From an uncultured Clostridium sp. (GTDB lineage Bacteria; Bacillota; Clostridia; TANB77; CAG-508), in assembly GCA_946495655.1 (NCBI GenBank), contig CAMMDS010000002.1, positions 28,984 through 92,983 on the forward strand: 64,000 nucleotides of DNA. Reading direction: 5' to 3'. The notes under the pieces are model-generated. The model searched no databases. It saw nothing but the letters and a program-made list of their open reading frames with translations, and had not been told where the DNA came from. The translations under genes and the position numbers were made by a program. Positions 23,522 to 51,235 of this stretch are shown here, one piece after another; the stretch's first letter is position 1, and each line of letters begins with the position of its first letter.

Positions 23522-23591
23522 CTACCATAGCTTAAGAATGCTTTACAAATATATATAATTTAAAAGAAAGGAGTTATTGTAGTTTTATTTT

Positions 23592-23775
23592 AAGCGCCTG
23601 GACGTATATATTCTAATACGTTGACGAGGAAGAAACCTATCGAAAGATTCGGCGGGTGGTTTCTTGGCAATGGTTACTGCCATAAATATTAGCAAAACCT
23701 GATAGTAATATCAGAATACAAATCTAATAGGGTAACCTTTATTTGTATTGCTTTCTTAAAATTCAGAACTAATTT
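23592..23775 (+). ncRNA. glmS ribozyme (GlcN6P-dependent self-cleaving riboswitch)
   Basis: AGCGCC cleavage-site start, conserved core GTTGACGAGG...TATCGAAAGATTCGGCGG matching the Bacillus glmS ribozyme. Located in the glmS 5' UTR. Confidence 0.85.
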
Positions 23776-23856: not shown

Positions 23857-25710
23857 ATGTGTGGTATTGTAGGATACATTGGTAGCAAAAAAGCTACACC
23901 TATTTTAATAGATGGACTTTTAAGTCTTGAATATAGAGGTTATGACTCAGCAGGAATTGCTACTATTGAAAAAGATGGTATTTCTGTTATGAAAGATAAA
24001 GGAAGAGTAAATAACTTAAATAATTTAGATGGTATAAATAATTTAGATGGTACAGTTGGTATAGCTCATACTAGATGGGCAACACATGGTAAGCCATCAA
24101 AAGAAAATTCTCATCCTCATAAAGATAATAGTGGAATGTTTGCAGTTGTTCATAATGGTATTATTGAGAATTATTCTGAACTTAGAGAATTTTTAACTTC
24201 AAAAGGTTATAGATTTTTATCTCAAACTGATACAGAAGTTATTCCAAATTTAATTCATTATTATTATACAAATGGACCAGTATCTATTTTAGAAAATGAA
24301 AGTGAAAAATTTTTAGGTGCTGTAAAATCAGCTATATATGATTTAAAAGGAAGTTATGCTATAGAAGCTATATCTCCAATATGTCCTGATAAAATTATTG
24401 TAGTAAGAAAAGATAGTCCATTAGTTATTGGAACAGGAAAAGAAGAAAATTACATTGCTTCTGATATTCCAGCTATATTAAAATATACAAAAGATTTCTA
24501 TTTATTAGATGATAATGAATTTGCAGTAGTAGAAAAAGATTGTGTTAGATTTTTTGATAATAGTTTAACAGAACATAATAAAGCTATAAAAAATATTGAA
24601 TGGGATGCAAATGCAGCAGGAAAAGACGGTTTTGAAGATTATATGCTTAAAGAAATCTTTGAGCAGCCAACAGCAATTAGAGAAACAATAGGTTCAAGAT
24701 TCCGTCTAGGCGAAAAATGTTCATTTGATGATATTGAATTATCTAAAGAATATTTAGAAAAAATCAACAAAATTTTTATCGTTGCCTGTGGAACAGCTAT
24801 GCATGCAGGTTTGGTTGGAAAAACAATTATAGAGAACTTATGTCAAATTCCTACAGAAGTAGATATAGCATCTGAATTTAGATATAGAAATCCAATAATA
24901 GATGAACATACTTTATGTATATATATAAGTCAATCTGGAGAAACAGCTGATACTATAGCTGCATTAAAACTTGCCAAATCAAAAGGAGCAAAAACACTTG
25001 CTATTTCAAATGTAATAGGAAGTTCAATAACAAGGGAAGCAGATTATTCTATATATACTCATGCAGGTCCAGAAATTGCAGTTGCATCAACTAAAGCTTA
25101 TACTTCTCAAGTAATGCTTATAGCAATTTTAGCAATGCATTTCGCAGAAATATTAGGAAGATCTTCTGAATCAGATATTGAATCATTAAAATCTGATATG
25201 ATTGATTTACCTTCTAAAATAGAAAAGATATTAGATGATAGTGAAATAATTAAAGAATTTGCAAAAAAAGTTTATACAGAAAAAGATATGTTTTTCTTAG
25301 GAAGAGGTACTGATTATAATGTTGCATTAGAAGGATCATTAAAATTGAAAGAAATTTCATATATTCATTCAGAAGCATATGCAGCTGGTGAATTAAAACA
25401 TGGTCCAATTGCACTTATAGAGAATGGTGTTACAGTTATAGGTATTATCACTAATCCAAATTTAGTTGAAAAATCTATTAGTAATATTCAAGAGGTAATA
25501 ACAAGAGGTGCTAAAACATTAATTATCACAAATCAAATACTTCCAAATAGTCATTTTGATTATGTAATTAATATTCCAGAAACAAATCCTCTTATCTCTC
25601 CTATTTTATCGGTAGTACCAATGCAACTCCTTGCATATTATATATCTAAATTCAAAGGTTTAGATGTTGACAAACCTAGAAACCTTGCAAAATCAGTAAC
25701 TGTTGAATAA
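23857..25710 (+). CDS. glmS: Glutamine--fructose-6-phosphate aminotransferase
   Basis: N-terminal MCGIVGY nucleophile, two SIS domains, C-terminal KSVTVE. Confidence 0.95.
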   Translation: MCGIVGYIGSKKATPILIDGLLSLEYRGYDSAGIATIEKDGISVMKDKGRVNNLNNLDGINNLDGTVGIAHTRWATHGKPSKENSHPHKDNSGMFAVVHNGIIENYSELREFLTSKGYRFLSQTDTEVIPNLIHYYYTNGPVSILENESEKFLGAVKSAIYDLKGSYAIEAISPICPDKIIVVRKDSPLVIGTGKEENYIASDIPAILKYTKDFYLLDDNEFAVVEKDCVRFFDNSLTEHNKAIKNIEWDANAAGKDGFEDYMLKEIFEQPTAIRETIGSRFRLGEKCSFDDIELSKEYLEKINKIFIVACGTAMHAGLVGKTIIENLCQIPTEVDIASEFRYRNPIIDEHTLCIYISQSGETADTIAALKLAKSKGAKTLAISNVIGSSITREADYSIYTHAGPEIAVASTKAYTSQVMLIAILAMHFAEILGRSSESDIESLKSDMIDLPSKIEKILDDSEIIKEFAKKVYTEKDMFFLGRGTDYNVALEGSLKLKEISYIHSEAYAAGELKHGPIALIENGVTVIGIITNPNLVEKSISNIQEVITRGAKTLIITNQILPNSHFDYVINIPETNPLISPILSVVPMQLLAYYISKFKGLDVDKPRNLAKSVTVE

Positions 25711-35245: not shown

Positions 35246-36604
35246 TTAGAAATTTGGTAAATCCACTGCATCGAATAACCAAGTACCCATATAAAGTTGT
35301 ATACATGGTACTATAATTACAATTACTAAGAATATTAAGAACACTCCAACAATTGAATATATAACTTGTGGTAAAACGCTCATTATTCTTTGCATTTCAT
35401 TATTTATATCCATATCCATGTATTCAACAAGTTTACTTATCATTTCAGATAAATCAGTTTGCATACCGATTTTTAACATTTCTGTTTCCATTGATGATGA
35501 TAAACCTGAATTTTCAAATGGCTCTATCCACGATGCACCTATTAATATATTATTAATAGCTGTTTCTATTATAGATAATAGTACATAATTTTTAACTACT
35601 GATTTACTTACTTCTAGCGAATCTTGAATTCTCATTCCATTTTCAAGGTTTAATAACATGGCTCTCATAAATCTTGAAAAATCCATCGCATATATTAATC
35701 TTCCAAAAATAGGCATTTTATATTTAAAATAATGGAAGTTATATTTTCCTTTTGGTGTATTTACATATGCAAAAATTATTCCAACAATTGCAGCAATCAT
35801 TCCAACTGGTATATACCAAACACTCATCAGATTATTACAGAAATTTACAAACCATACTGTAATTTCAGGAAGTTGCTGAGTTGTTCCTGAAGCCTCGAAA
35901 GCTTCTTCTATTAATGGAATAATGTATGCAACACCAAAAATCAATATTCCTAAAATAGCTACTAATTGTAAAACGTTTGGTATTATGATTTTTCTTAGTC
36001 TTGATCCTGTAGTGTCCACATCTTCAAGATATTTTACCGCTTGTTCTAGTGATTTTGTAAGTGATCCAGACATTTCTCCTACTCTTATCATGTTGATATA
36101 TATATATGGGAAAATGTTAGAATAATATTCCATTGTAGTATACATATATTCTCCAGATTCAACACCTGCTAATATATCTTGAAGTATTCCTCTTAGTGAT
36201 AAATTATCTGTACTATCTATTATAGTACTTAAAGCATGTATATTATTAAAGTTTGCTTTTTTCAACAAGTAAAAATTCTGTGTAAAAATTATAATGTCTC
36301 TCGTAGTTATTTTTTCTTCTCTTGCTAATGCTATATTTACTCTTTCCTTTAATGAAGGTTTTGCAGAAATCCTTCCTCGCATAATATTAGCAGAATCAGC
36401 TTGTTTCATTATGTCGTCTATATCCATCATATTTCTTCTATTAACTTTAGTTTTCTTGCTTCTGTATCCAACTTGTACAATACTTATTGGTACTAAGCCA
36501 CTACTCTTCAATTTTTTTATGAGAGTATGTTTATTGGAATCTTCAACTCTATTTCTTACAATTTGTCCCTTTGAAGTAACCGCTCTATAAATATATTCTG
36601 GCAT
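35246..36604 (-). CDS. pilC: Type IV pilus inner-membrane platform protein PilC (GspF family)
   Basis: Two T2SS-F domains and three TM segments. Confidence 0.85.
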   Translation of the reverse strand: MPEYIYRAVTSKGQIVRNRVEDSNKHTLIKKLKSSGLVPISIVQVGYRSKKTKVNRRNMMDIDDIMKQADSANIMRGRISAKPSLKERVNIALAREEKITTRDIIIFTQNFYLLKKANFNNIHALSTIIDSTDNLSLRGILQDILAGVESGEYMYTTMEYYSNIFPYIYINMIRVGEMSGSLTKSLEQAVKYLEDVDTTGSRLRKIIIPNVLQLVAILGILIFGVAYIIPLIEEAFEASGTTQQLPEITVWFVNFCNNLMSVWYIPVGMIAAIVGIIFAYVNTPKGKYNFHYFKYKMPIFGRLIYAMDFSRFMRAMLLNLENGMRIQDSLEVSKSVVKNYVLLSIIETAINNILIGASWIEPFENSGLSSSMETEMLKIGMQTDLSEMISKLVEYMDMDINNEMQRIMSVLPQVIYSIVGVFLIFLVIVIIVPCIQLYMGTWLFDAVDLPNF

Positions 36605-36630
36605 TTTTTCTCCTTTCTAATAAATATACT

Positions 36631-37749
36631 TTATTGATTTATTCTATTGTCCTTTTCTTTTTTTATTTTTAATTGCATTATAGTTCTATTTAAAGTCTCA
36701 ATATTCTTTTCCTCTATTTGTGCTTTTGCTTGTTCTAATGTGATTACATCATTTACAAATAATTCTGCTATAGAATTTATTAATCCTATACTTCCCTTTT
36801 CTAAGTTACTTTGTATTGCATCTTCTATTTCAGATACACTTATTTTTTCTTTTCTAATTATACCAGATACAATATTGTCTACTACCATTACCTCAGGTAC
36901 TAATACTAATTCTCCTGTTTTAGATGGTAATAATCTTTGAGATATAACTAATTTCAATAATGATGAAATTAAGTACTTAACTGTTTGTTGATCTCTTATT
37001 TCATAAAAGTTTACCATTCTATCTATTGTTTCTGCACATGACTTTGTATGAAGAGTTCCTATAACTAAATGTCCTGACTCTGCTGTCTCTATTGCTGCTT
37101 CCATAGTTTCTCTGTCTCTAATCTCTCCTATTACTAATATATCACAGTCTTCTCTTAATGAGTTTTTAACACCATCACTAAAGCTTAAACAATCTCTTCC
37201 AGCCCCAACTTCTTTCTGAATTATAACAGATTTTTTACTTGTATGCTTATATTCAACTGGATTTTCTAGTGTAAGTATTTTTTTGTTTTGATTTTCATTT
37301 ATTTCATTAATTAATGCATTTAATGTTGTTGTTTTTCCAGAATTAGTTTTACCAGTAACAAGCATTAATCCTTGTGGCTGATATGTCATTCTTCTTACTA
37401 TATCAGGAACACCTAAATCTTCATATTTTGGTAATTCATTTTTTATAAGTCTCATTGTAAATACTGGTATTTCATTAGCCAAAGAGATATTAACCCTTAA
37501 ACGTATGTCTTCAAATTCAAACGAAGTATCTAGTTTCTTTGTTTCTTTAAAAACTCTATCTTTATCTACATTTCCACGTACAAAATAATCATATACTTCA
37601 TACATATCATCTTCTACTAGAGGTGAAGGACATTCATATTCTATTAATTCTCTTCTAATTCTTAACATTGGCTTTAATCCGCAGATTAAATGTACATCAG
37701 AAGCATCCTTTTTACGTGCAGTATCCAAAATTTTATCAATATCTATCAT
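36631..37749 (-). CDS. pilT: Type IV pilus retraction ATPase PilT
   Basis: Walker A GKTNSGKTTT, Asp box, His box. 372 aa and no N-terminal GSPII-N domain. Confidence 0.85.
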   Translation of the reverse strand: MIDIDKILDTARKKDASDVHLICGLKPMLRIRRELIEYECPSPLVEDDMYEVYDYFVRGNVDKDRVFKETKKLDTSFEFEDIRLRVNISLANEIPVFTMRLIKNELPKYEDLGVPDIVRRMTYQPQGLMLVTGKTNSGKTTTLNALINEINENQNKKILTLENPVEYKHTSKKSVIIQKEVGAGRDCLSFSDGVKNSLREDCDILVIGEIRDRETMEAAIETAESGHLVIGTLHTKSCAETIDRMVNFYEIRDQQTVKYLISSLLKLVISQRLLPSKTGELVLVPEVMVVDNIVSGIIRKEKISVSEIEDAIQSNLEKGSIGLINSIAELFVNDVITLEQAKAQIEEKNIETLNRTIMQLKIKKEKDNRINQ

Positions 37750-37766
37750 TTGTTACCTCCATATTT

Positions 37767-39392
37767 TTAATATAATGCTAATTTATTATTTAGCTCATCC
37801 AAATTTGTAATACCATCTATTATCTTGTTTATACCATCTACAATTAATGGTACATATCCGTTTTGCAATGCTACATCCCTAATTTCCATCGCTGGCTTAT
37901 TTTCTACAATTAAAGATCTTATTGTATCATTTAACATTAATACTTCAAATATTCCAATTCTTCCAAGATATCCTGTATTATGACATTTTTTACATCCTAC
38001 TGCATCAAATGTTTTCTTTCCTTCTATATCGAATTTGATATTATATTTTTCTCCTATTTTTCCTATTATTTCTTTCTCTTTTTCTGTATAATCTCTTTCT
38101 CTAGCACAATGAGGACACAATCTTCTTACCAATCTCTCTGAAACTGATGTAGCCAAAGTACTTGATATATCATAGTTCGATATTCCCATTTTTCTCAATC
38201 TTGTTATAACTTCCACAGCATCAATTGTATGAATTGTTGATAATACGTAATGACCAGTTTGTCCAGCTTGCATTGCTATTTCTGCAGTTTCTGTATCTCT
38301 TATTTCTCCAACTAGTATAATATCTGGATCTTGTCTCAATACTGTTCTTAATGAATCTACAAAAGTTATTTTTTGATCAACTTCTATTTGATTTAATCCG
38401 TTTATTCTAATTTCTACTGGATCTTCAATAGTAGTAATATTTATTTGCGGTTTATTTAAATAATCTATAATACTGTATAATGTAGTAGTTTTACCCTCTC
38501 CTGTTGGAGCCGCTATAACAGTGATACTATTCTTTTTGTTAAATGCATTTTTTACTAGATTTTGGTCATTTGGGAATCCTAAATCAAATAATGATCTTAC
38601 ATCTTCGTTTTTCTTTAATAATCTTAGAACGAATTTTTCTCCATATATATTCTTTTGTGAAGAAACACGAATATTATATTCTGGATACATTATAATTCTA
38701 CCATCTTGTGATTCTTGTTTTTCTTGATGCATATTAGATATTGCTTTTAATCTTCCTACAATTTGTGATTGTTTTTCTTTTCCTATATCTGCTGCATTAA
38801 CTAATACACCATCAATTCTATATCTAATTCTCATTCCCTCTTGCATCGGTTCTATATGGATATCACTCGCCCTTTTATCCATTGCTGTTTTTATTACACT
38901 ATCTATAAATCCAGAAACATCTGCATTTACATCTATAGTCTCCGAACTACCGCCAAAAGAATTCAAAATCAAATCAATATTTGTTTCAAATGTTATATAT
39001 TTTTCCATTATAAGGCCTTTATTTAAAAGTAAAAGCCTTACAGTTTCAACAGCTCTTTTATTTGAAGTATCTGCAAAGCATACTTTTATTCTTCCACTTA
39101 CTTCTTCAAATGGTATAGCTTTATATTGTTTTGCAGTATCAATTGAAATATAATCAAGAATATTAAGTTTAATATCTGCTTCTCTTAAATATATTGCTTT
39201 TTCTTCTAGAATCTCTCCCATTGCATTTATTAATACATATGGATCACATACTCTTAAAATATTTAATATATCTCCGATTTTCTTTTTGGGTTCAGCTTTT
39301 TGATAATCTAATGCTCTTTCAATATCTTCTTCAGTAACAATTCCTCTTTTTACTAATTCTATTCCTAAAGGTTGTCTTTTTTTTGACTCCAT
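37767..39392 (-). CDS. pilB: Type IV pilus assembly ATPase PilB (GspE family)
   Basis: N-terminal GSPII_E_N domain, Walker A APTGEGKTTT, tetracysteine CPHC...CKKC zinc motif. Confidence 0.9.
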   Translation of the reverse strand: MESKKRQPLGIELVKRGIVTEEDIERALDYQKAEPKKKIGDILNILRVCDPYVLINAMGEILEEKAIYLREADIKLNILDYISIDTAKQYKAIPFEEVSGRIKVCFADTSNKRAVETVRLLLLNKGLIMEKYITFETNIDLILNSFGGSSETIDVNADVSGFIDSVIKTAMDKRASDIHIEPMQEGMRIRYRIDGVLVNAADIGKEKQSQIVGRLKAISNMHQEKQESQDGRIIMYPEYNIRVSSQKNIYGEKFVLRLLKKNEDVRSLFDLGFPNDQNLVKNAFNKKNSITVIAAPTGEGKTTTLYSIIDYLNKPQINITTIEDPVEIRINGLNQIEVDQKITFVDSLRTVLRQDPDIILVGEIRDTETAEIAMQAGQTGHYVLSTIHTIDAVEVITRLRKMGISNYDISSTLATSVSERLVRRLCPHCARERDYTEKEKEIIGKIGEKYNIKFDIEGKKTFDAVGCKKCHNTGYLGRIGIFEVLMLNDTIRSLIVENKPAMEIRDVALQNGYVPLIVDGINKIIDGITNLDELNNKLALY

Positions 39393-39459
39393 AGAATTTC
39401 TCCTTTCATTAGTTATATATTATATATTATTAACTTTTTTTATAATAATATTATTAATT

Positions 39460-39912
39460 TCACCAATATCTCAAAGTAAAACTAATATTTTGAGTTATTG
39501 AATCTTCGGCATTTCTTCCAATTTGTAAATCTACATTAATAATATTTTTACTAACTGTATTTACAGTATAAGGTGATAATGTAAAATTACATCCTAATAT
39601 ATTTTGTGCTATACGTACATCATTCCTATAGATAAAATTGTTTTGATACGTATATACTGGCCCATCTTCGAATTCTATAGTGTTATTTGTTACTGTAGCA
39701 TTATCATAGTTTTTTACATCAGTAGCAAAAAACATGGCAAATTTATTGAATTCATTAATGTATTTGGGTGAATTAACTGCTTCCCCAATGTTAGCATAAA
39801 AAAATGTACTTATTGTAGTTAAAACACCTATAACCAAAGTTAGTATGAACATATATGCAACTAAAGCCGCTAACGTAATACCTTTTTCACTTTTAACTTT
39901 ATTTTTCCACAT
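39460..39912 (-). CDS. Minor pilin-like protein (prepilin-type N-terminus KG|ITLAALV, no Glu5)
   Basis: Class III signal-like N-terminus followed by a hydrophobic helix. Confidence 0.6.
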   Translation of the reverse strand: MWKNKVKSEKGITLAALVAYMFILTLVIGVLTTISTFFYANIGEAVNSPKYINEFNKFAMFFATDVKNYDNATVTNNTIEFEDGPVYTYQNNFIYRNDVRIAQNILGCNFTLSPYTVNTVSKNIINVDLQIGRNAEDSITQNISFTLRYW

Positions 39913-39942
39913 TTGTTACACGAAAAGCCCCTTTCACAATAG

Positions 39943-40368
39943 TTATATTTCCTTAATTTTTAATCTTTTGACTGTAAATTCTTCTGTTTCTCCTGCTACT
40001 GTATATGAGATTTTTAAATTTACAATTTTTATTACATCTTTTATATAAGGTTTTCCTTCTCCATAGTCTGTTAATTGTAAATCCACATTAAATCCATTTG
40101 GTATAGAAAATTGTTCTTTATATTCAGCCCCCGTCATATTTTGAGCATCTTCATACGATAATTTATCAATATCTTCTAATATTTGTACTGCATAGAATGT
40201 CATTTGCGATGTTAAATTTGCTCTAATGTTAATATGATAAACCGAATACATTAATGTTCCAATAATTCCTACAAATGCAACAAATATAAAGCATGCAATA
40301 AGTAAATCTTGCATTGTAAATCCATTTTCTGATTTTAAATTAATTTTTAATTTACTTTTATTGTTCAT
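39943..40368 (-). CDS. Minor pilin-like protein (NG|FTMQDLL, Asp at +5)
   Basis: Prepilin cleavage motif G-F-T-M and hydrophobic helix. Confidence 0.65.
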   Translation of the reverse strand: MNNKSKLKINLKSENGFTMQDLLIACFIFVAFVGIIGTLMYSVYHINIRANLTSQMTFYAVQILEDIDKLSYEDAQNMTGAEYKEQFSIPNGFNVDLQLTDYGEGKPYIKDVIKIVNLKISYTVAGETEEFTVKRLKIKEI

Positions 40369-40372
40369 TTAA

Positions 40373-41188
40373 TCACCTATAAAAAATCACATAATTAGTT
40401 ATTAGTAACATTATTATATTTGAAACACACATGTAAAATCCTATTGGAATTTTAGTATTTTCAATTTTAACTCTTTTTACAATCTTACTCTTTTTTTCAC
40501 TTAGTTTTTGAATCAATAATTGAATTGAAATAGCAAGTAATGTAATAATTACTGTATATATATATACAGTTTCATATGTAAATAAAATCATTAACATTGA
40601 TAATAATAAAACATCAATAGTATAACTGTCTTGACCTTTTTTTCTTAAATACACAATGCTAAATAGCAATAATATGCATGATAACATTAAATAAATAACA
40701 TATCTATAGATACTAGCATCATTTTCTACTATATATAGATATATCATATATAATGTAACACAAATAAAGCCAAATAATAATACTGGCTTTTCTATTCTAA
40801 TTCTTTCTTTATCGATTCCAGCAATAATAAACAGTGTTGCTAAATATAACAATCCCACAACAAAATATACTAATATTTGATTGTTTAAATTAAAAATACT
40901 AATTTTAATTGAAGCTGCAAATAATACAAATACAACACCTGATAATATTTCAAGTAAAATATATCTAACTCTAATTTTTTCTTTGCAATATCTACATCTT
41001 CCACCTAAAAAGGTATAACTTAATATTGGTATCATGTCTAAAAAAGTTAATTTATGATTGCAATTAGGGCAATATGAACGTGTATGAGTTATATCTTGTC
41101 CTAATGGAATCCTATATACTGCTAAAGTAAAAAAGCTACCAAATAAAGTGCCTATGCAAAATATTAAAATATATAATATATAGTCCAT
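40373..41188 (-). CDS. pilD: Prepilin peptidase (A24 family)
   Basis: N-terminal CxxC...CxxC zinc motif, polytopic membrane protein. Confidence 0.85.
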   Translation of the reverse strand: MDYILYILIFCIGTLFGSFFTLAVYRIPLGQDITHTRSYCPNCNHKLTFLDMIPILSYTFLGGRCRYCKEKIRVRYILLEILSGVVFVLFAASIKISIFNLNNQILVYFVVGLLYLATLFIIAGIDKERIRIEKPVLLFGFICVTLYMIYLYIVENDASIYRYVIYLMLSCILLLFSIVYLRKKGQDSYTIDVLLLSMLMILFTYETVYIYTVIITLLAISIQLLIQKLSEKKSKIVKRVKIENTKIPIGFYMCVSNIIMLLITNYVIFYR

Positions 41189-42068: not shown

Positions 42069-42752
42069 TTATTGTGTAATTTCATTTGATGTATCTGTAT
42101 TAGTTGTATCTGTTTCTGTATTAGTTGTTGTAGTACCATCTGATGTAGTAGACTCTACTGTAGTTGTTGTATTTTCTAAATCTATTCTAATACCAGTTAC
42201 ATTAAATGTTGCTTGTAGATTTTCTCCATCTGGAAGTAGATGAAAATTCTCTATTCTAAATTCTAGCTCGCTATCATTTTCAAGTGCTGATATAAATTCT
42301 ATTATTCCTGCATATTGTCCTGTTACTGTAAAATTTATATTCTTAACAGTAGAATCACCTGCGTCTCCAGATAACACATCCATTCTAAAATTTACACCCT
42401 CTGTTCTTGCATGTCTTCCTATTCTTAGCCATAGGTATTCAATTTTATAAACTTCTTGTGTATTAGCTTCATTTATTTCGCTTTCTGTACTAACATTAGC
42501 CAAATTATAATAGCTTTCTTTGTTTTCTAATAATACACTAACATTATCAGATAATTCTGTTTTTTTGTTTTGTAAATCGCTTTTTATTTTTATATTAGCT
42601 TCATTTATTTCTGTTGTTAAATTGTCATTAAGTTCTATTATACCTTGTGTACTCAAAATTTGAAATGAGCCTATAGAAATTCCTTGAAATATAGTGAAAT
42701 ATGCCAGAACAATTAATAATACGAGTAATACTGCTATTAAAATTTTTCTCAT
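42069..42752 (-). CDS. pilO: PilO-like pilus assembly protein
   Basis: Single N-terminal TM, coiled coil, periplasmic-type domain. Overlaps the pilMN stop by 4 nt. Confidence 0.55.
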   Translation of the reverse strand: MRKILIAVLLVLLIVLAYFTIFQGISIGSFQILSTQGIIELNDNLTTEINEANIKIKSDLQNKKTELSDNVSVLLENKESYYNLANVSTESEINEANTQEVYKIEYLWLRIGRHARTEGVNFRMDVLSGDAGDSTVKNINFTVTGQYAGIIEFISALENDSELEFRIENFHLLPDGENLQATFNVTGIRIDLENTTTTVESTTSDGTTTTNTETDTTNTDTSNEITQ

Positions 42753-44368
42753 GGCAAATCCCCCTCTATAACAATCTTGACAAAATCGCCTTGTTTTTCT
42801 CCTTGTGTAGAAACTACATTTGTTAATATTCTATCTTCTTTAAGTTTTGCTTTAAAATATCCTAATTCATCGTAATATCTAGATTGTGCATTAATTACTA
42901 TATGTCTTCCTTCTGAACCTGCAGTATTTTCAATTTCAGTTATTTGTACTTGTCTAGGTATAGCAGACATTATTTCTACTAATAGATTTGGAATTGAGTT
43001 TTTTAAGCTCAAATCATTTTCTATTTTGTCATTTATATTTCTAAGGTTGTCTTCCATTTCTTTATATCTATTAGCTTTTTGTTTTACTTCATTTATATCA
43101 CTATCTGCTAAAGCTATCTGAGCATCTGTATAATCGCTTACTTCTTGTGCTTCAACTATTTTATCATTTATTCTATTATTTAAATAAATAGAAAAACCTG
43201 AAAATAATATTGTAAGCATTAATACTCCAGCAGCACTTCTTAATAACCACTTTTCTGTAAGATCAAATTTTCCTTTCAAGCTAAAGTTAAGTTTTTTTCC
43301 ACTTTTCTTTTCTTTTTTTCCTAAACTTACATCTATCTTTAGCCAATCTGGTAATTGGTCTATAAGGCTTGGTTTTTTGAAATTCATGTTCTTGATACCA
43401 TAGCCTAATCCTTGCATTGCTATAGCAATTGCTGAATTCACTTCTATATAGTCTTTTATGTTTATTTTTACGCTTTCTGTGATGAAATAAGGTTTTAGTA
43501 CTTCGCATTTTTCTGTTTGGAAAAACTCTTGAAAATATAAATCTATATTATTTACAACTGACATTGTACCAGTCAAATAAATCTTTTCAAACTTCACAGT
43601 TGTACTAGCTACATATTCTTGTACTTTTGTTACTATTTTGTATAATGTAGGCATTATATAATCTAGATATTCATTTTCTTCGTCCTGTAATTCTTTTCCT
43701 TCCATTGTGTATATTGTAGAATTTTTACAAATCTCATACGCTTTAGAATATGAATTTTCTTTACTAGCAATTTTTCCTAATATATCTCCAGAACCTTCTT
43801 CTAGTTTTTCTACATTATATATTTTTTGATTTATTATACTAGTTATACTAGTATTTTCTTCTATATTTACAATTATTATGTTTTCCTTAGGTTTAATAGA
43901 TGCAATATTGGCAATACTAGTTCCTATTGGAGTTATTGTAGATACCTTGTAATCATTGAATGTTTGTAAAGTTTTTGAAATTGACGATTTGTTTGAAGAA
44001 ACATGTATTACTTTTACTTTATCTTTATCATCAATTTCATTCGATAACGCATATCTTGCTTCAAATGCATTTTTATTTAACTTTTTGTCATAACAATATG
44101 AATCAAATTCAGTATCTATAGCTTGTTTTAGATCATTCTTGTTAAGAAGGCTAAACATATAGAAATAGTTGTATATTTCTTCAGATAGATTTATACTTAT
44201 TGGTATATTATAGCTATAAGTTTCTGAAACAATTTGTTCTATTGCTTCACCAATTTTTTCATAAAACTTTACTCCAAAAGATTCTATCTTTAAAAGTTCA
44301 CGATCTTTGGTTACTTTTGCATATTTAATTACATTGTTTTCTATATATAATCCTAAACAGCTAGACAT
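42749..44368 (-). CDS. pilMN: PilM-PilN fusion protein
   Basis: Actin-like PilM domain of about 330 aa, TM segment LLRSAAGVLMLTILFSGFSIYL, then PilN-like coiled-coil domain. Confidence 0.8.
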   Translation of the reverse strand: MSSCLGLYIENNVIKYAKVTKDRELLKIESFGVKFYEKIGEAIEQIVSETYSYNIPISINLSEEIYNYFYMFSLLNKNDLKQAIDTEFDSYCYDKKLNKNAFEARYALSNEIDDKDKVKVIHVSSNKSSISKTLQTFNDYKVSTITPIGTSIANIASIKPKENIIIVNIEENTSITSIINQKIYNVEKLEEGSGDILGKIASKENSYSKAYEICKNSTIYTMEGKELQDEENEYLDYIMPTLYKIVTKVQEYVASTTVKFEKIYLTGTMSVVNNIDLYFQEFFQTEKCEVLKPYFITESVKINIKDYIEVNSAIAIAMQGLGYGIKNMNFKKPSLIDQLPDWLKIDVSLGKKEKKSGKKLNFSLKGKFDLTEKWLLRSAAGVLMLTILFSGFSIYLNNRINDKIVEAQEVSDYTDAQIALADSDINEVKQKANRYKEMEDNLRNINDKIENDLSLKNSIPNLLVEIMSAIPRQVQITEIENTAGSEGRHIVINAQSRYYDELGYFKAKLKEDRILTNVVSTQGEKQGDFVKIVIEGDLP

Positions 44369-44844: not shown

Positions 44845-45651
44845 TTACATTCTTACAATTGCAAATATTAAAATTATAATACCAAATATAACTCTATATA
44901 TTGCAAAACCTTTAAAACTTCCCTTTTGCAAATAATGTAGTAACCACTTTATTACAATTATACCTACAATAAAACTTGCTAATATTCCGACAAAAAATGA
45001 AACACTAAATACAAAATCTTTTATTTTAAATATTGTTGCTGCAAATACAATAGGTGCAGAAAGCATGAAAGAATATCTCGCAGCAGAAGTTCTATCTACT
45101 CCCATTGCTCTTCCTGTTGTCATTGTAATTCCTGATCTAGAAACTCCAGGAATAAAAGCTAAACATTGTGAAAGTCCAATTAAAAAAGTTTGTTTAAATG
45201 TCATGTGCTCATAATCTGTTGTTGATTTCGATTTTTTATCAACGAAATATAAAATTATACCCATTATAATTAATGCAATCGCAATTATAACTGGTTTTTT
45301 TAGAATGTCTCCAGCAAATGTATCTAATAATAATCCTATTATACCACCAGGTATTGTAGCAATAACTAAATACCAAAACATTCTTCCTTCAGTTGTTTTT
45401 TTCTTTTTTACTACTTGATTAAATCCACCAACAATCAATCTAATCCAATCTTTGAAGAAAAATAGAGCAATTGCCAAAAATGTTCCAAAATGTAAAGCTA
45501 CATCAAAACCTTCAAACGCTATATTAAATTCTGGATTAGCAGTCCAATTTAAAAGCCATGGTATAATGTCTAAATGTCCTGAACTAGATATTGGTAATAG
45601 TTCTGTCAATCCCTGTATAATTCCTAATATTAATGCTTGTAAAACTGTCAT
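44845..45651 (-). CDS. uppP: Undecaprenyl-diphosphatase
   Basis: ELLPISSSGHL motif, 8-TM BacA family. Confidence 0.9.
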   Translation of the reverse strand: MTVLQALILGIIQGLTELLPISSSGHLDIIPWLLNWTANPEFNIAFEGFDVALHFGTFLAIALFFFKDWIRLIVGGFNQVVKKKKTTEGRMFWYLVIATIPGGIIGLLLDTFAGDILKKPVIIAIALIIMGIILYFVDKKSKSTTDYEHMTFKQTFLIGLSQCLAFIPGVSRSGITMTTGRAMGVDRTSAARYSFMLSAPIVFAATIFKIKDFVFSVSFFVGILASFIVGIIVIKWLLHYLQKGSFKGFAIYRVIFGIIILIFAIVRM

Positions 45652-45759: not shown

Positions 45760-46680
45760 TTAATGCAACATTAAGATTTTATTTATAATATCTTTTATAT
45801 ATTTTCCAGCTGTTCTAGGCATTTCTTTTCCAGGAATCCCTAGTGCAGTTATTACTTTAATTCCTAATCCTTTCGCATATTCTTTATTTATTCCTCCTGG
45901 TGATGATGCTAGGTCTATTATAAGCACATCTTTTCTAAAATGTTCTAATTCCTTTTTATCTATAACAATTGTCGGAACAGTATTTATAACTATGTCAAAT
46001 TCTGATGAATATTTATTCAGTTCATCATATTTAAGAGGAATATATCTCTTTTCTCTAATCCATGCCAAATCAGTTTCTTTTCTTGCTGAACAATAAATAT
46101 TGGCTCCAAGATTACTAAATCTATCACATAAAATTTTTCCTATTCTTCCAAATCCACAAATTAGTACATTACTTTCATGAATTGTTTCTTCTCTTTCTTC
46201 TATAGCTATTTTTATTGTTCCCTCAACCGTAGGAATTGCATTTAATATTGTAAGTTCCTCATTTTTCAATAAATCTATTGTATTTATTTTTTCATCATCA
46301 CATAAATCTTTTGGAATCCCTCCAGCAACAAATGTTTTACCTGATAATAATTTAGATATCTCATTTATTGTGATTTTTTGTTTAGAAAAAGGAGAATTTA
46401 TATTAATGTTATCTTTCGTAAATGGCATTCCACTTATTATCACATCAGAACTTTCTATTGTTTCTTCTAATGTATTGCATATTTTAATATTTTCATCAAT
46501 AACTTCATATTTTTTTCTAGTACAATTATCTTCATTACTATTTTTATTAATCTCAATTAAGTTCTTTTCAAAATATTTTTCTAATCCATATGTATAAATG
46601 TTGTTTATTTCTTTTTCTTTTGCATACATTTCTGCTAATCTAACTATACGCAAATCTCCCCCTACAATGGAAATATTCAT
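45760..46680 (-). CDS. dpaA: Dipicolinate synthase subunit A homolog (SpoVFA/DpaA family)
   Basis: NAIPTVEGTI, IDLASSPGG, GIKVITALGIPG align closely with B. subtilis SpoVFA. No dpaB follows it. Confidence 0.75.
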   Translation of the reverse strand: MNISIVGGDLRIVRLAEMYAKEKEINNIYTYGLEKYFEKNLIEINKNSNEDNCTRKKYEVIDENIKICNTLEETIESSDVIISGMPFTKDNININSPFSKQKITINEISKLLSGKTFVAGGIPKDLCDDEKINTIDLLKNEELTILNAIPTVEGTIKIAIEEREETIHESNVLICGFGRIGKILCDRFSNLGANIYCSARKETDLAWIREKRYIPLKYDELNKYSSEFDIVINTVPTIVIDKKELEHFRKDVLIIDLASSPGGINKEYAKGLGIKVITALGIPGKEMPRTAGKYIKDIINKILMLH

Positions 46681-48656: not shown

Positions 48657-48809
48657 TCCTTTTTATTATATTTATTTTTGTATTTATTACTATGCATAAT
48701 TTTACTTTTACTATTTTAATTTAATTTAAATGTTTTGTCCAGTATTTCATTTAAATTGTAACAAAAAAGTAAAGATTCATTTAATCCTTACTTTTTTGTT
48801 AATTTATTT

Positions 48810-51143
48810 TTATTTATATAATTTTTCTATTGCCCTTTCAACCGCTTCTCTTTCATCCCAGTAATATTGTACTCCTTTAATTTCTTGATATTGTTCATGT
48901 CCTTTTCCGATTAAAAGAATAATATCTCCATTTTCTGCATTCTTCATTGCGTACTCTATTGCTTCTTGTCTATCTTCTATAATAATGTATTTGCCATTAC
49001 TTCTATTTAATCCTGTGATTATATCATTATTAATAGATTCAATTTCTTCAAATCTAGGATTGTCCTCTGTAAGAATTGTAAGCCCTGCATATTTTCCTGA
49101 TATTTCTCCCATATCATATCTTCTATCTCTTGCTCTGTTTCCGCCACCACCGAAGATGCAAACTATTCTTTTTGGTTTATACTCCATTATTGTTTCCATT
49201 AAATTAGTCATTTCATCTTCATTATGAGCATAATCTATAATTAATTTGTATTTATCATTTGAAACAGCAAGTTCCATTCTTCCTTTAACAGAAACTGTTG
49301 TTAACACTTTCTTCATTGCATCTTTACTTATTCCTATTTCATTTGCAATTGTGATTGCACACAATGAATTATATACGGAAAATCTTCCTGGAATTGATAC
49401 CTCAAACTTATCATTTATTTTTCCTGCTACATCAAATCCCATTCCTAAGAATTTATCATTCATAATAAATTTTATATTTGAAGCTCTCATATCTAAATCT
49501 TCTTCGTTCATTCCAAATCTAATAACTTTACAAGTGTGATTTTTCAATATATTTTCATAATTTTTATCATCGGCATTTATAATCCCTGTATTACATTTTT
49601 GGAATAATAAACTTTTACAGAACATATATTCTTCAAAACTTTCATGTTCATTTGGTCCAATATGTTCTTTTGATATATTTGTAAAAACACCATAATCAAA
49701 TGTAAATCCATCTACTCTGTGCATTTTTAATCCTTGTGATGATACTTCCATTATTGCATATTTACAACCTTCGTCGCACATCTCTCTGAATAGTTTTTGT
49801 ATTTCATAATTTTCTGGCGTTGTATTATGAAGAGGAATTTTTCTCTTTCCAATAAAAGCTCCTATTGTGCCAATCAAACCTGCTTTTTTTCCATCAGCTT
49901 CTATCATTCTTTTTAATATTGTTGATGTTGATGTTTTTCCTGCAGTTCCTGTTATTCCTATAACAGTCAATTCTTTTGCTGGATAATTAAAATACGCAGC
50001 AGATATTTCTGCCATTGCTTCTCTTGATGATTTAACCCTTATTACTGTTATATCTTCTTTTGGCATATCTATTTCTTTTTCTATTACTATTACTTTTGCA
50101 CCTTTTTTTATAACATCTGGAATATATTTATGTCCATCTGACGTAGCTCCCACCTTTGCTACATACATATCATCTTTTTCTACTTTTCTAGAATCATCTT
50201 TCACATCAGATATTTCTACATTTAAACTACCTTTTACTAACTCATAATCCACATTTCTTAATAATTGTGTTAATTCTGTAGTTCTGTTCTTTTTTATAAT
50301 GTTATCAACATCTATTTCTGATTCAAATACTGTATGAGATGGGCCTTTCATAAACATTTTTCCGCTTTTTTCATCCCAATTTGTTTCAAGTATTCCTCCT
50401 ATTTGATGAACATTAACTTTTCTATCACATCGTCCTGTTAAAACTGCTGCTACTGTTGCTGTACAACATCCAGTTCCACAACCTATTGTTTCTCCAGTTC
50501 CTCTTTCCCATTCTCTTATTTTTATATTATTTCTATCTATTACTTGTGCAAACGTTACATTAGTTTTATTTGGGAATAACTCTGTTTTATATTCAATTGC
50601 CTTTCCATATTTTTCTACATCAAAATTATCTACATCATCTATAAACATTACACAATGAGGATTTCCCCATGAAATTGCAGTTATTTTTAATGTTTTATCT
50701 AATACTTTTACTTCTTGCTCTACAAATTCTGTTAAATCTGTATTTACTGGAATAACACTAGTATCTAATACTGGTTTTCCAATATTAGCTTCTATGTTTA
50801 TCGCTTTTCCATTTTCTACTGTTAATTTTACATGTTGAATTCCACCTAATGTTTCTATTTCTAATTCTGTTTTGTCTGTTAAATTATGATCATATACATA
50901 TTTGCTTAAACTTCTTAATGCATTACCACACATTTCTCCTTCTGTACCATCTGGATTAAACATTCTCATTTTAAAATCTGCAACATCAGAACTACATATT
51001 AGAACTAAGCCATCAGAACCAACCCCAAAATGTCTATTACTTAGATATTTAGCAAGTTCATGCACATTATTAATTTTTTGATTAATTGCATCTATATATA
51101 CATAGTCATTACCATATGCTTGCATTTTTGTAAATTTTGTCAT
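48810..51143 (-). CDS. Bifunctional fusion: diaminopimelate epimerase (DapF) N-terminal domain plus UDP-N-acetylmuramoyl-tripeptide (meso-DAP-adding) ligase MurE-like C-terminal domain
   Basis: N-terminus MTKFTKMQAYGNDYVYID, catalytic Cys motifs GEMCGNA and GCGTGCCT (DapF). C-terminus GITGTAGKTSTS P-loop and DNPR motif (MurE). Start at 51143 after GGGAGG. Confidence 0.8.
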   Translation of the reverse strand: MTKFTKMQAYGNDYVYIDAINQKINNVHELAKYLSNRHFGVGSDGLVLICSSDVADFKMRMFNPDGTEGEMCGNALRSLSKYVYDHNLTDKTELEIETLGGIQHVKLTVENGKAINIEANIGKPVLDTSVIPVNTDLTEFVEQEVKVLDKTLKITAISWGNPHCVMFIDDVDNFDVEKYGKAIEYKTELFPNKTNVTFAQVIDRNNIKIREWERGTGETIGCGTGCCTATVAAVLTGRCDRKVNVHQIGGILETNWDEKSGKMFMKGPSHTVFESEIDVDNIIKKNRTTELTQLLRNVDYELVKGSLNVEISDVKDDSRKVEKDDMYVAKVGATSDGHKYIPDVIKKGAKVIVIEKEIDMPKEDITVIRVKSSREAMAEISAAYFNYPAKELTVIGITGTAGKTSTSTILKRMIEADGKKAGLIGTIGAFIGKRKIPLHNTTPENYEIQKLFREMCDEGCKYAIMEVSSQGLKMHRVDGFTFDYGVFTNISKEHIGPNEHESFEEYMFCKSLLFQKCNTGIINADDKNYENILKNHTCKVIRFGMNEEDLDMRASNIKFIMNDKFLGMGFDVAGKINDKFEVSIPGRFSVYNSLCAITIANEIGISKDAMKKVLTTVSVKGRMELAVSNDKYKLIIDYAHNEDEMTNLMETIMEYKPKRIVCIFGGGGNRARDRRYDMGEISGKYAGLTILTEDNPRFEEIESINNDIITGLNRSNGKYIIIEDRQEAIEYAMKNAENGDIILLIGKGHEQYQEIKGVQYYWDEREAVERAIEKLYK

Positions 51144-51235
51144 TTTTATTCCTCCCATATTTTGGATAATTTAAACAGACTTATTTAATCAAAATTAATA
51201 GTTTAACCTTGATTAAATATGCCTGCTCTACTTTT

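Follow-up and report, generated by a model that had tools for sequence, protein, structure and literature searches.

A single-gene fusion of diaminopimelate epimerase and the meso-diaminopimelate-adding ligase MurE in a clade of uncultured Clostridia

Diaminopimelate epimerase (DapF) and MurE, the Mur ligase that attaches meso-diaminopimelate (meso-DAP) to the peptidoglycan precursor, act in consecutive steps of the pathway. In the DNA described here, a 64-kb stretch of contig CAMMDS010000002.1 from an uncultured Clostridium sp. (called the window, at its full length), the two enzymes are encoded by one gene. Positions 48810-51143 of the minus strand form a single uninterrupted open reading frame (ORF) of 777 amino acids (aa), in which DapF is followed by MurE. 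An initial annotation had proposed that this is one polypeptide with both domains complete and their catalytic motifs intact, and the proposal is upheld by full-length matches to Pfam and NCBIfam models and by alignments to solved structures. The protein is most probably bifunctional, with an epimerase and a ligase, each of conventional type, tethered to one another, and the arrangement is best read in terms of proximity and stoichiometry.

The features of the gene are as follows.

48810-51143, minus strand: complete dapF-murE fusion coding sequence, 777 codons and a TAA stop at 48812-48810, assigned from the single ORF and its domain content
51151-51156, minus strand: Shine-Dalgarno (SD) sequence GGGAGG, 7 nucleotides (nt) 5′ of the ATG at 51143, read from the sequence
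50307-51143, minus strand: DapF half, residues 1-279, assigned from TIGR00652, PF01678 and full-length structure alignments
50928-50930, minus strand: codon of Cys72, the predicted first catalytic cysteine (EMCGNALRS), aligned with the CGNGxRC cysteine of five solved DapFs
50478-50480, minus strand: codon of Cys222, the predicted second catalytic cysteine (GETIGCGTGCC), aligned with the ACGTGAC cysteine of five solved DapFs
50268-50306, minus strand: inter-domain linker, residues ~280-292 (DNIIKKNRTTELT), the least conserved segment, delimited by codon comparison with the unfused loci L084 and L088
48813-50267, minus strand: MurE (UDP-MurNAc-L-Ala-D-Glu:meso-DAP ligase, MurNAc being N-acetylmuramic acid) half, residues 293-777, with three Mur ligase domains, assigned from NF001126, PF01225, PF08245 and PF02875
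49932-49949, minus strand: predicted ATP-binding P-loop G399-T-A-G-K-T404, aligned with GTNGKT of solved MurEs
49614-49616, minus strand: codon of Lys510, at the carbamylated-lysine position of MurE, where FCKSLLF aligns with AAKWLLY of E. coli
49053-49064, minus strand: D694-N-P-R697, the predicted meso-DAP recognition motif, aligned with DNPR of the E. coli and M. tuberculosis MurEs

The longest form of the ORF, from the first ATG, covers 48810-51158 on the minus strand and encodes 782 aa. This earlier in-frame ATG at 51158 is overlapped by the SD sequence GGGAGG and is for that reason an unlikely start; homologues begin with MTKF or MKF, and the start at 51143 is preferred.

The DapF half matches the NCBIfam model TIGR00652 (DapF) over protein residues 8-282 and profile positions 2-268 of 270, with 263 bits against a cutoff of 114.65. 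Two stretches match PF01678 (174 bits against a cutoff of 34.7), which gives two DAP_epimerase domains. The half aligns over its full length with the solved DapF structures 2otn, 9mro, 5ha4, 8qzy and 3ejx, and its GND, FNPDG, GNPH and ERG motifs line up with those of solved DapFs. The catalytic pair of DapF is Cys73 and Cys217 in the numbering of H. influenzae and E. coli; the aligned Cys72 and Cys222 of the fusion are invariant in 14 fused homologues with identities down to 53%.

The MurE half exceeds the cutoff of the NCBIfam equivalog for meso-DAP MurE, NF001126 (508 bits against 373, residues 295-779), as well as that of TIGR01085 (441 bits against 257), and PF01225, PF08245 and PF02875 each exceed their cutoffs within it. 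Over the whole protein, Pfam thus reports DAP_epimerase (in the two stretches), Mur_ligase N, Mur_ligase_M and Mur_ligase_C, all above cutoff. Full-length alignments are obtained with the MurE structures of E. coli (7b6o) and M. tuberculosis (2wtz) and with other MurE structures. The lysine in AAKWLLY of E. coli MurE, with which Lys510 aligns, is the carbamylated Lys224. GKGHEQYQ of the fusion aligns with GKGHEDYQ of solved MurE, and DNPR stands where the MurE of T. maritima (4bub, deposited as an L/D-lysine ligase) has DDPR. T398, G399, T400, G402, K403, K510 and D694-R697 are invariant in a 65-sequence alignment, and the P-loop, K510 and DNPR are also invariant among the 14 fused homologues. 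The model for bifunctional MurE/MurF proteins, NF008896 (PRK11929), reaches 407 bits, below its cutoff of 1023, since only its MurE part matches, and the MurE-MurF structure 8f5d matches the fusion over residues 311-768 only. Because their catalytic residues align with those of solved enzymes and are invariant in homologues, both halves look catalytically competent, and we infer from the sequence that both are active.

The fusion arose from two adjacent co-oriented genes whose intervening stop, spacer and start were lost. The nearest unfused relatives are P0112 (loci L084-L086) and P0111 (locus L088), with a MurE half 68% identical to that of the window. In these loci a dapF of 285 aa lies directly 5′ of a murE of 492 aa, in the same synteny as in the window. 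The junction of L084 reads ...FESEIDVSNVIK-stop-KHEKGETMKNLRKILENVEY (FESEIDVSNVIK-stop-KHEKGETMKNL), a single in-frame TAG being followed by a 21-nt spacer with the SD sequence AAGGGGG and then by ATG, and the junction of the window reads ...FESEIDVDNIIKKNRTTELTQLLRNVDY. In the DNA alignment, the fused genes lack ~19-27 nt that hold the stop or stops and the SD sequence of their unfused relatives, and the former murE ATG has become ACT in the window and ATT or ATA in other fused genes. As stop, SD and ATG have been lost at the junction, MurE can apparently no longer be translated by itself in the fused genes. By the same comparison, the linker is what is left of three ancestral elements: stop codon, 21-nt spacer and murE start. 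The initial annotation had placed the junction at about 50250-50350, as the segment in which a stop or frameshift was to be sought; it is now located at 50268-50306, and these nucleotides contain no stop, frameshift, internal SD sequence or start codon. Related loci share the flanking order: a Cys/Met pyridoxal phosphate (PLP) enzyme, the fusion, a pyrophosphatase, a tetratricopeptide repeat (TPR) protein, a DpaA-like protein and UppP.

It emerges from comparison with other genomes that dapF-murE adjacency is widespread in Clostridia and that the fusion is restricted to one clade. A scan of GTDB species representatives gave at least 80 loci with an apparent full-length match. ORF-by-ORF examination found single-ORF fusions in only four of the 80 matches listed (L004-L007), all in metagenome-assembled genomes (MAGs) labelled Clostridia, Clostridium sp. 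or Oscillospiraceae. A first count of about 65 species with the fusion, taken from tblastn coverage of residues 3-775, was given up after this check, which left L004-L007 as the only single ORFs, most of the others being adjacent genes. Among the matches listed, dapF and murE are separate genes in at least 67 loci. Nearly all of these pairs (63 of 67) are directly adjacent, that is, overlapping, a few to ~300 nt apart, or in frame with one stop between them; in L057, L058, L061 and L071, ~0.9-3 kb lies between dapF and murE. In a further nine of the 80 loci listed, dapF alone was seen. Counting the lineages of L084-86 and L088, an adjacent unfused pair occurs in at least 64 species, which include Roseburia and other Lachnospiraceae, Diplocloster agilis, D. 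hominis, Anaerosporobacter faecicola, Oscillospiraceae, Acutalibacteraceae and others. Three such pairs are given as examples.

L008, 5980-8376: adjacent dapF-murE pair
L013, 5914-8367: adjacent dapF-murE pair
L047, 5746-8284: adjacent dapF-murE pair

Across the loci with adjacent pairs (L008-L083), an overlap or a gap of less than 60 nt is frequent, and in about ten loci the two genes share a frame and are separated by a single stop. This conserved pairing seems to have passed without discussion in the searchable literature. Clostridia-like dapF-murE pairs, 48-72% identical to the halves of the window, also occur in L026, L019 and L040, which carry the titles ‘Thermoguttaceae bacterium’ and ‘uncultured Mycoplasma sp.’; the taxonomy assigned to these MAGs seems doubtful.

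When 1.84 billion cluster representatives (50% identity) were searched exhaustively with HMMER, the best 150 matches contained a single fused protein, P0093, with 1240 bits. The runner-up is a lone MurE with 654 bits, above which any two-domain protein should rank. Long matches of ~930-997 aa, considered as possible DapF fusions, turned out to be double Mur ligases or MurE-FemAB proteins. These other long MurE proteins (P0172, P0134, P0137 and P0202) comprise a MurE-FemAB of 933 aa, double Mur ligases of 979-997 aa, and a 548-aa protein with a DEAD-helicase N-terminus and a Mur ligase, which may be a mis-assembly.

Within the clade, the fused and unfused states have changed several times. In a neighbour-joining tree of the MurE half (200 bootstraps), the window falls within an all-fused group in 200/200 replicates, and the same group including P0090 is recovered in 193/200; a second all-fused clade has 196/200. 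The fused P0087 groups with the unfused P0109 and P0111 (199/200), and the fused P0093 with seven unfused sequences (200/200), while the whole clade holding both forms is found in 194/200. It is this interleaving of fused and unfused forms in well-supported groups that implies multiple changes of state. At the DNA level, P0087 is fused in two samples and P0111 is unfused.

In the mechanism that best accounts for these data, the stop codon, the short intergenic spacer with the ribosome-binding site of murE, and the murE start were lost between the two neighbouring genes. The N-terminal half would then work as a two-cysteine, PLP-independent epimerase converting LL-DAP to meso-DAP, and the C-terminal half as an ATP-dependent Mur ligase joining meso-DAP to UDP-MurNAc-L-Ala-D-Glu. 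A short and poorly conserved linker would tether the two halves and therefore impose 1:1 co-expression, placing the source of meso-DAP beside its cell-wall consumer. The benefit would be one of stoichiometry and proximity, possibly with stabilisation of a DapF-MurE contact that is known between the separate proteins. Because DapF usually forms dimers, the fusion would be expected to dimerise as well.

The initial annotation had seen in the fusion a suggestion of substrate channelling, which would require a fixed DapF-MurE assembly handing meso-DAP from the active site of the epimerase straight to that of the ligase. Such an assembly is attractive for enzymes that catalyse consecutive steps, but it is rather unlikely here, and one would hesitate equally over the consequences ascribed to it, namely that it would commit DAP to peptidoglycan over lysine and prevent mis-incorporation of LL-DAP. 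At the junction, R287 and L291 are fairly conserved (0.89 and 0.98), as a fixed arrangement would favour, but the linker of ~13 residues varies among homologues in both length and sequence, and residues ~280-293 hold insertions and deletions. An AlphaFold2 (AF2) model computed from the 65-sequence alignment has a mean predicted local distance difference test score (pLDDT) of 87.6 but a predicted template modelling score (pTM) of only 0.68. Its lowest internal pLDDT, 65, lies at residues 271-280, just N-terminal of the junction, and residues 281-290 average 80. In neither the linker conservation nor the AF2 confidence is there any sign of a dedicated tunnel or a fixed interface, and the PDB holds no chain with both a DapF and a MurE half. 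Retention of the fusion across a sizeable clade and the wide conservation of dapF-murE adjacency would agree with channelling, but sister lineages are unfused and changes of state are frequent; this switching among close relatives argues against any strong requirement for the fusion. Separate DapF and MurE do interact in M. tuberculosis (Munshi et al. 2013, PMC3605390), but the paper on the MurE-MurF chimera itself favoured proximity over a closed channel as likely (Shirakawa et al. 2023, PMC10214165). Channelling is thus not borne out by the variable linker, the predicted structure and the behaviour of relatives, and co-expression with proximity is the safer reading.

Some considerations nevertheless weigh against tethering as the whole account. 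The fusion is kept across a clade of about 57-98% identity, which suggests that it does no harm, at the least, and may be under selection, so that a real kinetic advantage is possible, and a defined inter-domain interface may exist. A bolder and rather doubtful proposal is that the fusion hard-wires a DapF-MurE metabolon that is transient in other bacteria, as the M. tuberculosis interaction hints, allowing kinetic channelling or stereochemical proofreading of DAP; that it would partition DAP flux away from lysine is a comparably tentative extension. Were the proposal true, repeated gain and loss among close relatives would be a natural experiment on when coupling pays. The suggestion, also made in the initial annotation, of a target for lineage-specific inhibitors is speculation: both active sites are conventional, the hosts are uncultured gut Clostridia of low GC content (~28%), and practical impact is modest and the drug-target idea weak. 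As to separate copies of the two genes, which the initial annotation wished to see sought elsewhere in the genome, the 64-kb window contains no other dapF or murE.

It is very improbable that either half is a relic without catalytic function or has acquired another specificity, in the way that DapF serves as a glutamate racemase (Chlamydia) or that a MurE might add LL-DAP, lysine or another diamino acid. Some Clostridia have LL-DAP-type walls, and the first cysteine motif of the DapF half is CGNALRS in place of the usual CGNGxRC; yet both cysteines and the four neighbouring motifs match solved DapFs, and the model for bifunctional DapF/glutamate racemase of the Chlamydia type (NF038284) reaches 101 bits, well below its cutoff of 350. 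On the ligase side, the best MurE model is the meso-DAP equivalog, above its cutoff, whereas the model for L-lysine-adding MurE (NF010628) stays at 354 bits against 536. DNPR is invariant, and an epimerase-ligase fusion is most sensible if the ligase consumes the product of the epimerase.

An artefact, in which a sequencing or assembly error at the junction merged adjacent dapF and murE, is effectively refuted: relatives do have the two genes adjacent with a single in-frame stop, where one base error could mimic a fusion, but the junction of the window lacks stop, SD and ATG alike, is ~19-27 nt shorter than unfused junctions, and recurs in independent material. The exact 777-aa protein is found on seven contigs from several samples, obtained with different assemblers. 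In the four loci that were fetched (L091-L094), from four different samples and differently named assemblies, the gene has the same DNA sequence throughout, and over their full 5.3 kb three loci differ from the window at 0-1 positions. In a search covering 5.8 billion proteins, the matches filled more than 100 clusters (90% identity), with lengths of 772-798 aa and identities to the query from 98% down to 52%; all have DAP_epimerase and the Mur ligase M and C domains, and most also the N domain. The same architecture in independent assemblies and in so many divergent clusters settles the question, raised in the initial annotation, of an error joining two genes.

Individual database entries do call for such caution. 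P0105, a fused protein from an Oscillospiraceae clade that was considered as an independent fusion, corresponds at its junction to the +1 frame of the 3′ end of its neighbours' dapF; it resembles a 1-nt frameshift in a singleton contig and is probably due to a 1-nt indel. P0104 is also a singleton; both belong to distant clades, and neither was counted as a secure independent fusion. Conversely, P0107, seemingly a split close relative, is an assembly artefact and not a fission, for it lies on a long-read contig in which lactate dehydrogenase (Ldh), pyrophosphatase and other genes are fragmented. In L087 (ena:ERZ21549425 s12878.ctg014659l), a close relative assembled from long reads, Ldh, the Cys/Met PLP enzyme, DapF and the pyrophosphatase are all in pieces, which shows that frameshift-rich assemblies can mimic a ‘split’ version of the fusion.

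Enzymes of consecutive pathway steps are commonly found fused, and the present case departs modestly from cell-wall enzyme fusions already known. Its DapF resembles stand-alone DapF (TIGR00652, PF01678; PDB 2otn, 4ijz, 1gqz) in its full-length match, two-domain fold, catalytic cysteines and neighbouring motifs, and differs from it in being covalently continued by MurE and in having CGNALRS, not CGNGxRC. Its MurE shares with stand-alone meso-DAP MurE (NF001126, TIGR01085; 1e8c/7b6o, 2wtz) the three domains, the P-loop, the carbamylated-Lys position, DNPR and GKGHE, but has no start or ribosome-binding site of its own and forms the C-terminal 485 residues of a longer protein. In the window this murE does not lie within a division and cell wall (dcw) gene cluster. 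Adjacent dapF-murE pairs (L008-L088; Lachnospiraceae, Oscillospiraceae, Acutalibacteraceae and others) agree with the fusion in gene order and orientation and, in the closest relatives, also in flanking genes; unlike the fusion, they consist of two ORFs with a stop and either a spacer of 1-100 nt or a short overlap, and their murE has its own SD sequence and start.

Natural chimeras of Mur enzymes have been catalogued by Shirakawa et al. (2023, PMC10214165) and comprise MurE-MurF, MurC-Ddl, MurC-MurB, MurG-MurC, MurD-FtsW and MraY-MurG; the same paper reports the structure of a MurE-MurF from B. pertussis (PDB 8f5d), and its survey left out ‘unidentified species’. Like these chimeras, the fusion joins a Mur ligase to a second enzyme of the peptidoglycan pathway, originates from adjacent genes, with a linker or none between the parts, and invites the same arguments of stoichiometry and proximity. 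At 777 aa it belongs with the chimeras as they are defined there (a Mur-family ligase with a second peptidoglycan-pathway enzyme, more than 600 aa). It differs in that the partner is an epimerase supplying the amino acid, placed N-terminal to its cognate ligase. DapF-MurE is absent from the catalogued types, and the words DapF and ‘epimerase’ occur 0 times in PMC10214165; the fusion is found in uncultured Clostridia, a group excluded from that survey. In M. tuberculosis, DapF interacts specifically with MurE in an in vivo protein-fragment complementation assay, and enzymes that supply a substrate made contact with no Mur ligase other than the one consuming their product (PMC3605390). The two enzymes are the same, separate and non-covalently associated there, and covalently linked in the fusion, which is known from sequence; by analogy, the M. 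tuberculosis interaction makes functional coupling in the fusion plausible. Full-text literature searches for a DapF-MurE or MurE-DapF fusion, or for a fused diaminopimelate epimerase and Mur ligase, returned no relevant paper. Fused proteins are present in public sequence collections, where no source gives them a name, and as far as could be determined the fusion is undescribed though in databases.

Mur-ligase chimeras serve as evidence for a cytoplasmic peptidoglycan-synthesis complex. In the catalogued forms, the partner of a Mur enzyme is another Mur enzyme, Ddl or a protein of the membrane steps; a ligase joined to the supplier of its amino acid extends this picture. The fusion is the covalent counterpart of the DapF-MurE interaction of M. 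tuberculosis, a clean Rosetta-stone fusion, and offers a convenient single-chain object for structures of the DapF-MurE contact and for tests of channelling versus proximity. Matched natural controls are provided by close orthologues, some fused and some not, that share the same synteny.

Two hairpins flank the gene.

48759-48801, minus strand: terminator-like hairpin, 9 nt 3′ of the stop, with a 19-bp stem between an A-run and a U-run, from RNA folding
51176-51225, minus strand: strong AT-rich hairpin within the 77 nt that separate the fusion gene from the upstream Cys/Met-PLP gene, from RNA folding

The first has a folding energy of -19.6 kcal/mol (z = -8.5 against shuffles) and was missed by a terminator consensus scan because of its AT-rich stem. 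The second (-20.4 kcal/mol, z = -8.35) ends ~30 nt before the start codon, where a separate promoter would have little space; it may act as the terminator of the upstream gene or as an attenuator, or have no role. Upstream of the fusion, no Rfam element, riboswitch or T-box was found, and this hairpin itself has no Rfam match. A scan for sigma-70 promoters gave 35 sites against 35.5 expected and is uninformative in such AT-rich DNA.

Elsewhere in the window, a region at 31.8-39.9 kb considered as a dcw cluster with a second murE was identified by Pfam as RNase J, a ROK protein and a type IV pilus block. This type IV pilus or type II secretion-like block (35246-41188, minus strand) contains a T2SSF platform protein, two T2SSE ATPases (372 and 541 aa), a 150-aa ORF with no Pfam match and a prepilin peptidase. 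A DpaA-like gene (45760-46680, minus strand) has the N-terminal domain of dipicolinate synthase subunit A and a NAD-binding domain. It is adjoined by no DpaB/flavoprotein gene, the next gene being UppP/BacA (44845-45651), and the arrangement is kept in related loci; dipicolinate branches off the same DAP pathway in which DapF acts. A glmS ribozyme (23582-23739, plus strand; 89 bits against a gathering score of 37), an ordinary control element for cell-wall precursors, precedes a 617-aa ORF (23857-25710) that is presumably glmS. The gene at 57845-59131 (minus strand) encodes a protein of 428 aa, nearly all of which is taken up by RCC1 repeats (RCC1-like propeller, 487 bits), with ClpC (59569-62019) and lactate dehydrogenase (56753-57709) as neighbours. 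Finally, two overlapping ORFs of 539 and 227 aa (42069-44368, minus strand) have no Pfam match at E≤1e-5 and are conserved 3′ of UppP in related loci, as genes of 547/545 aa and 221 aa in L001 and L084.

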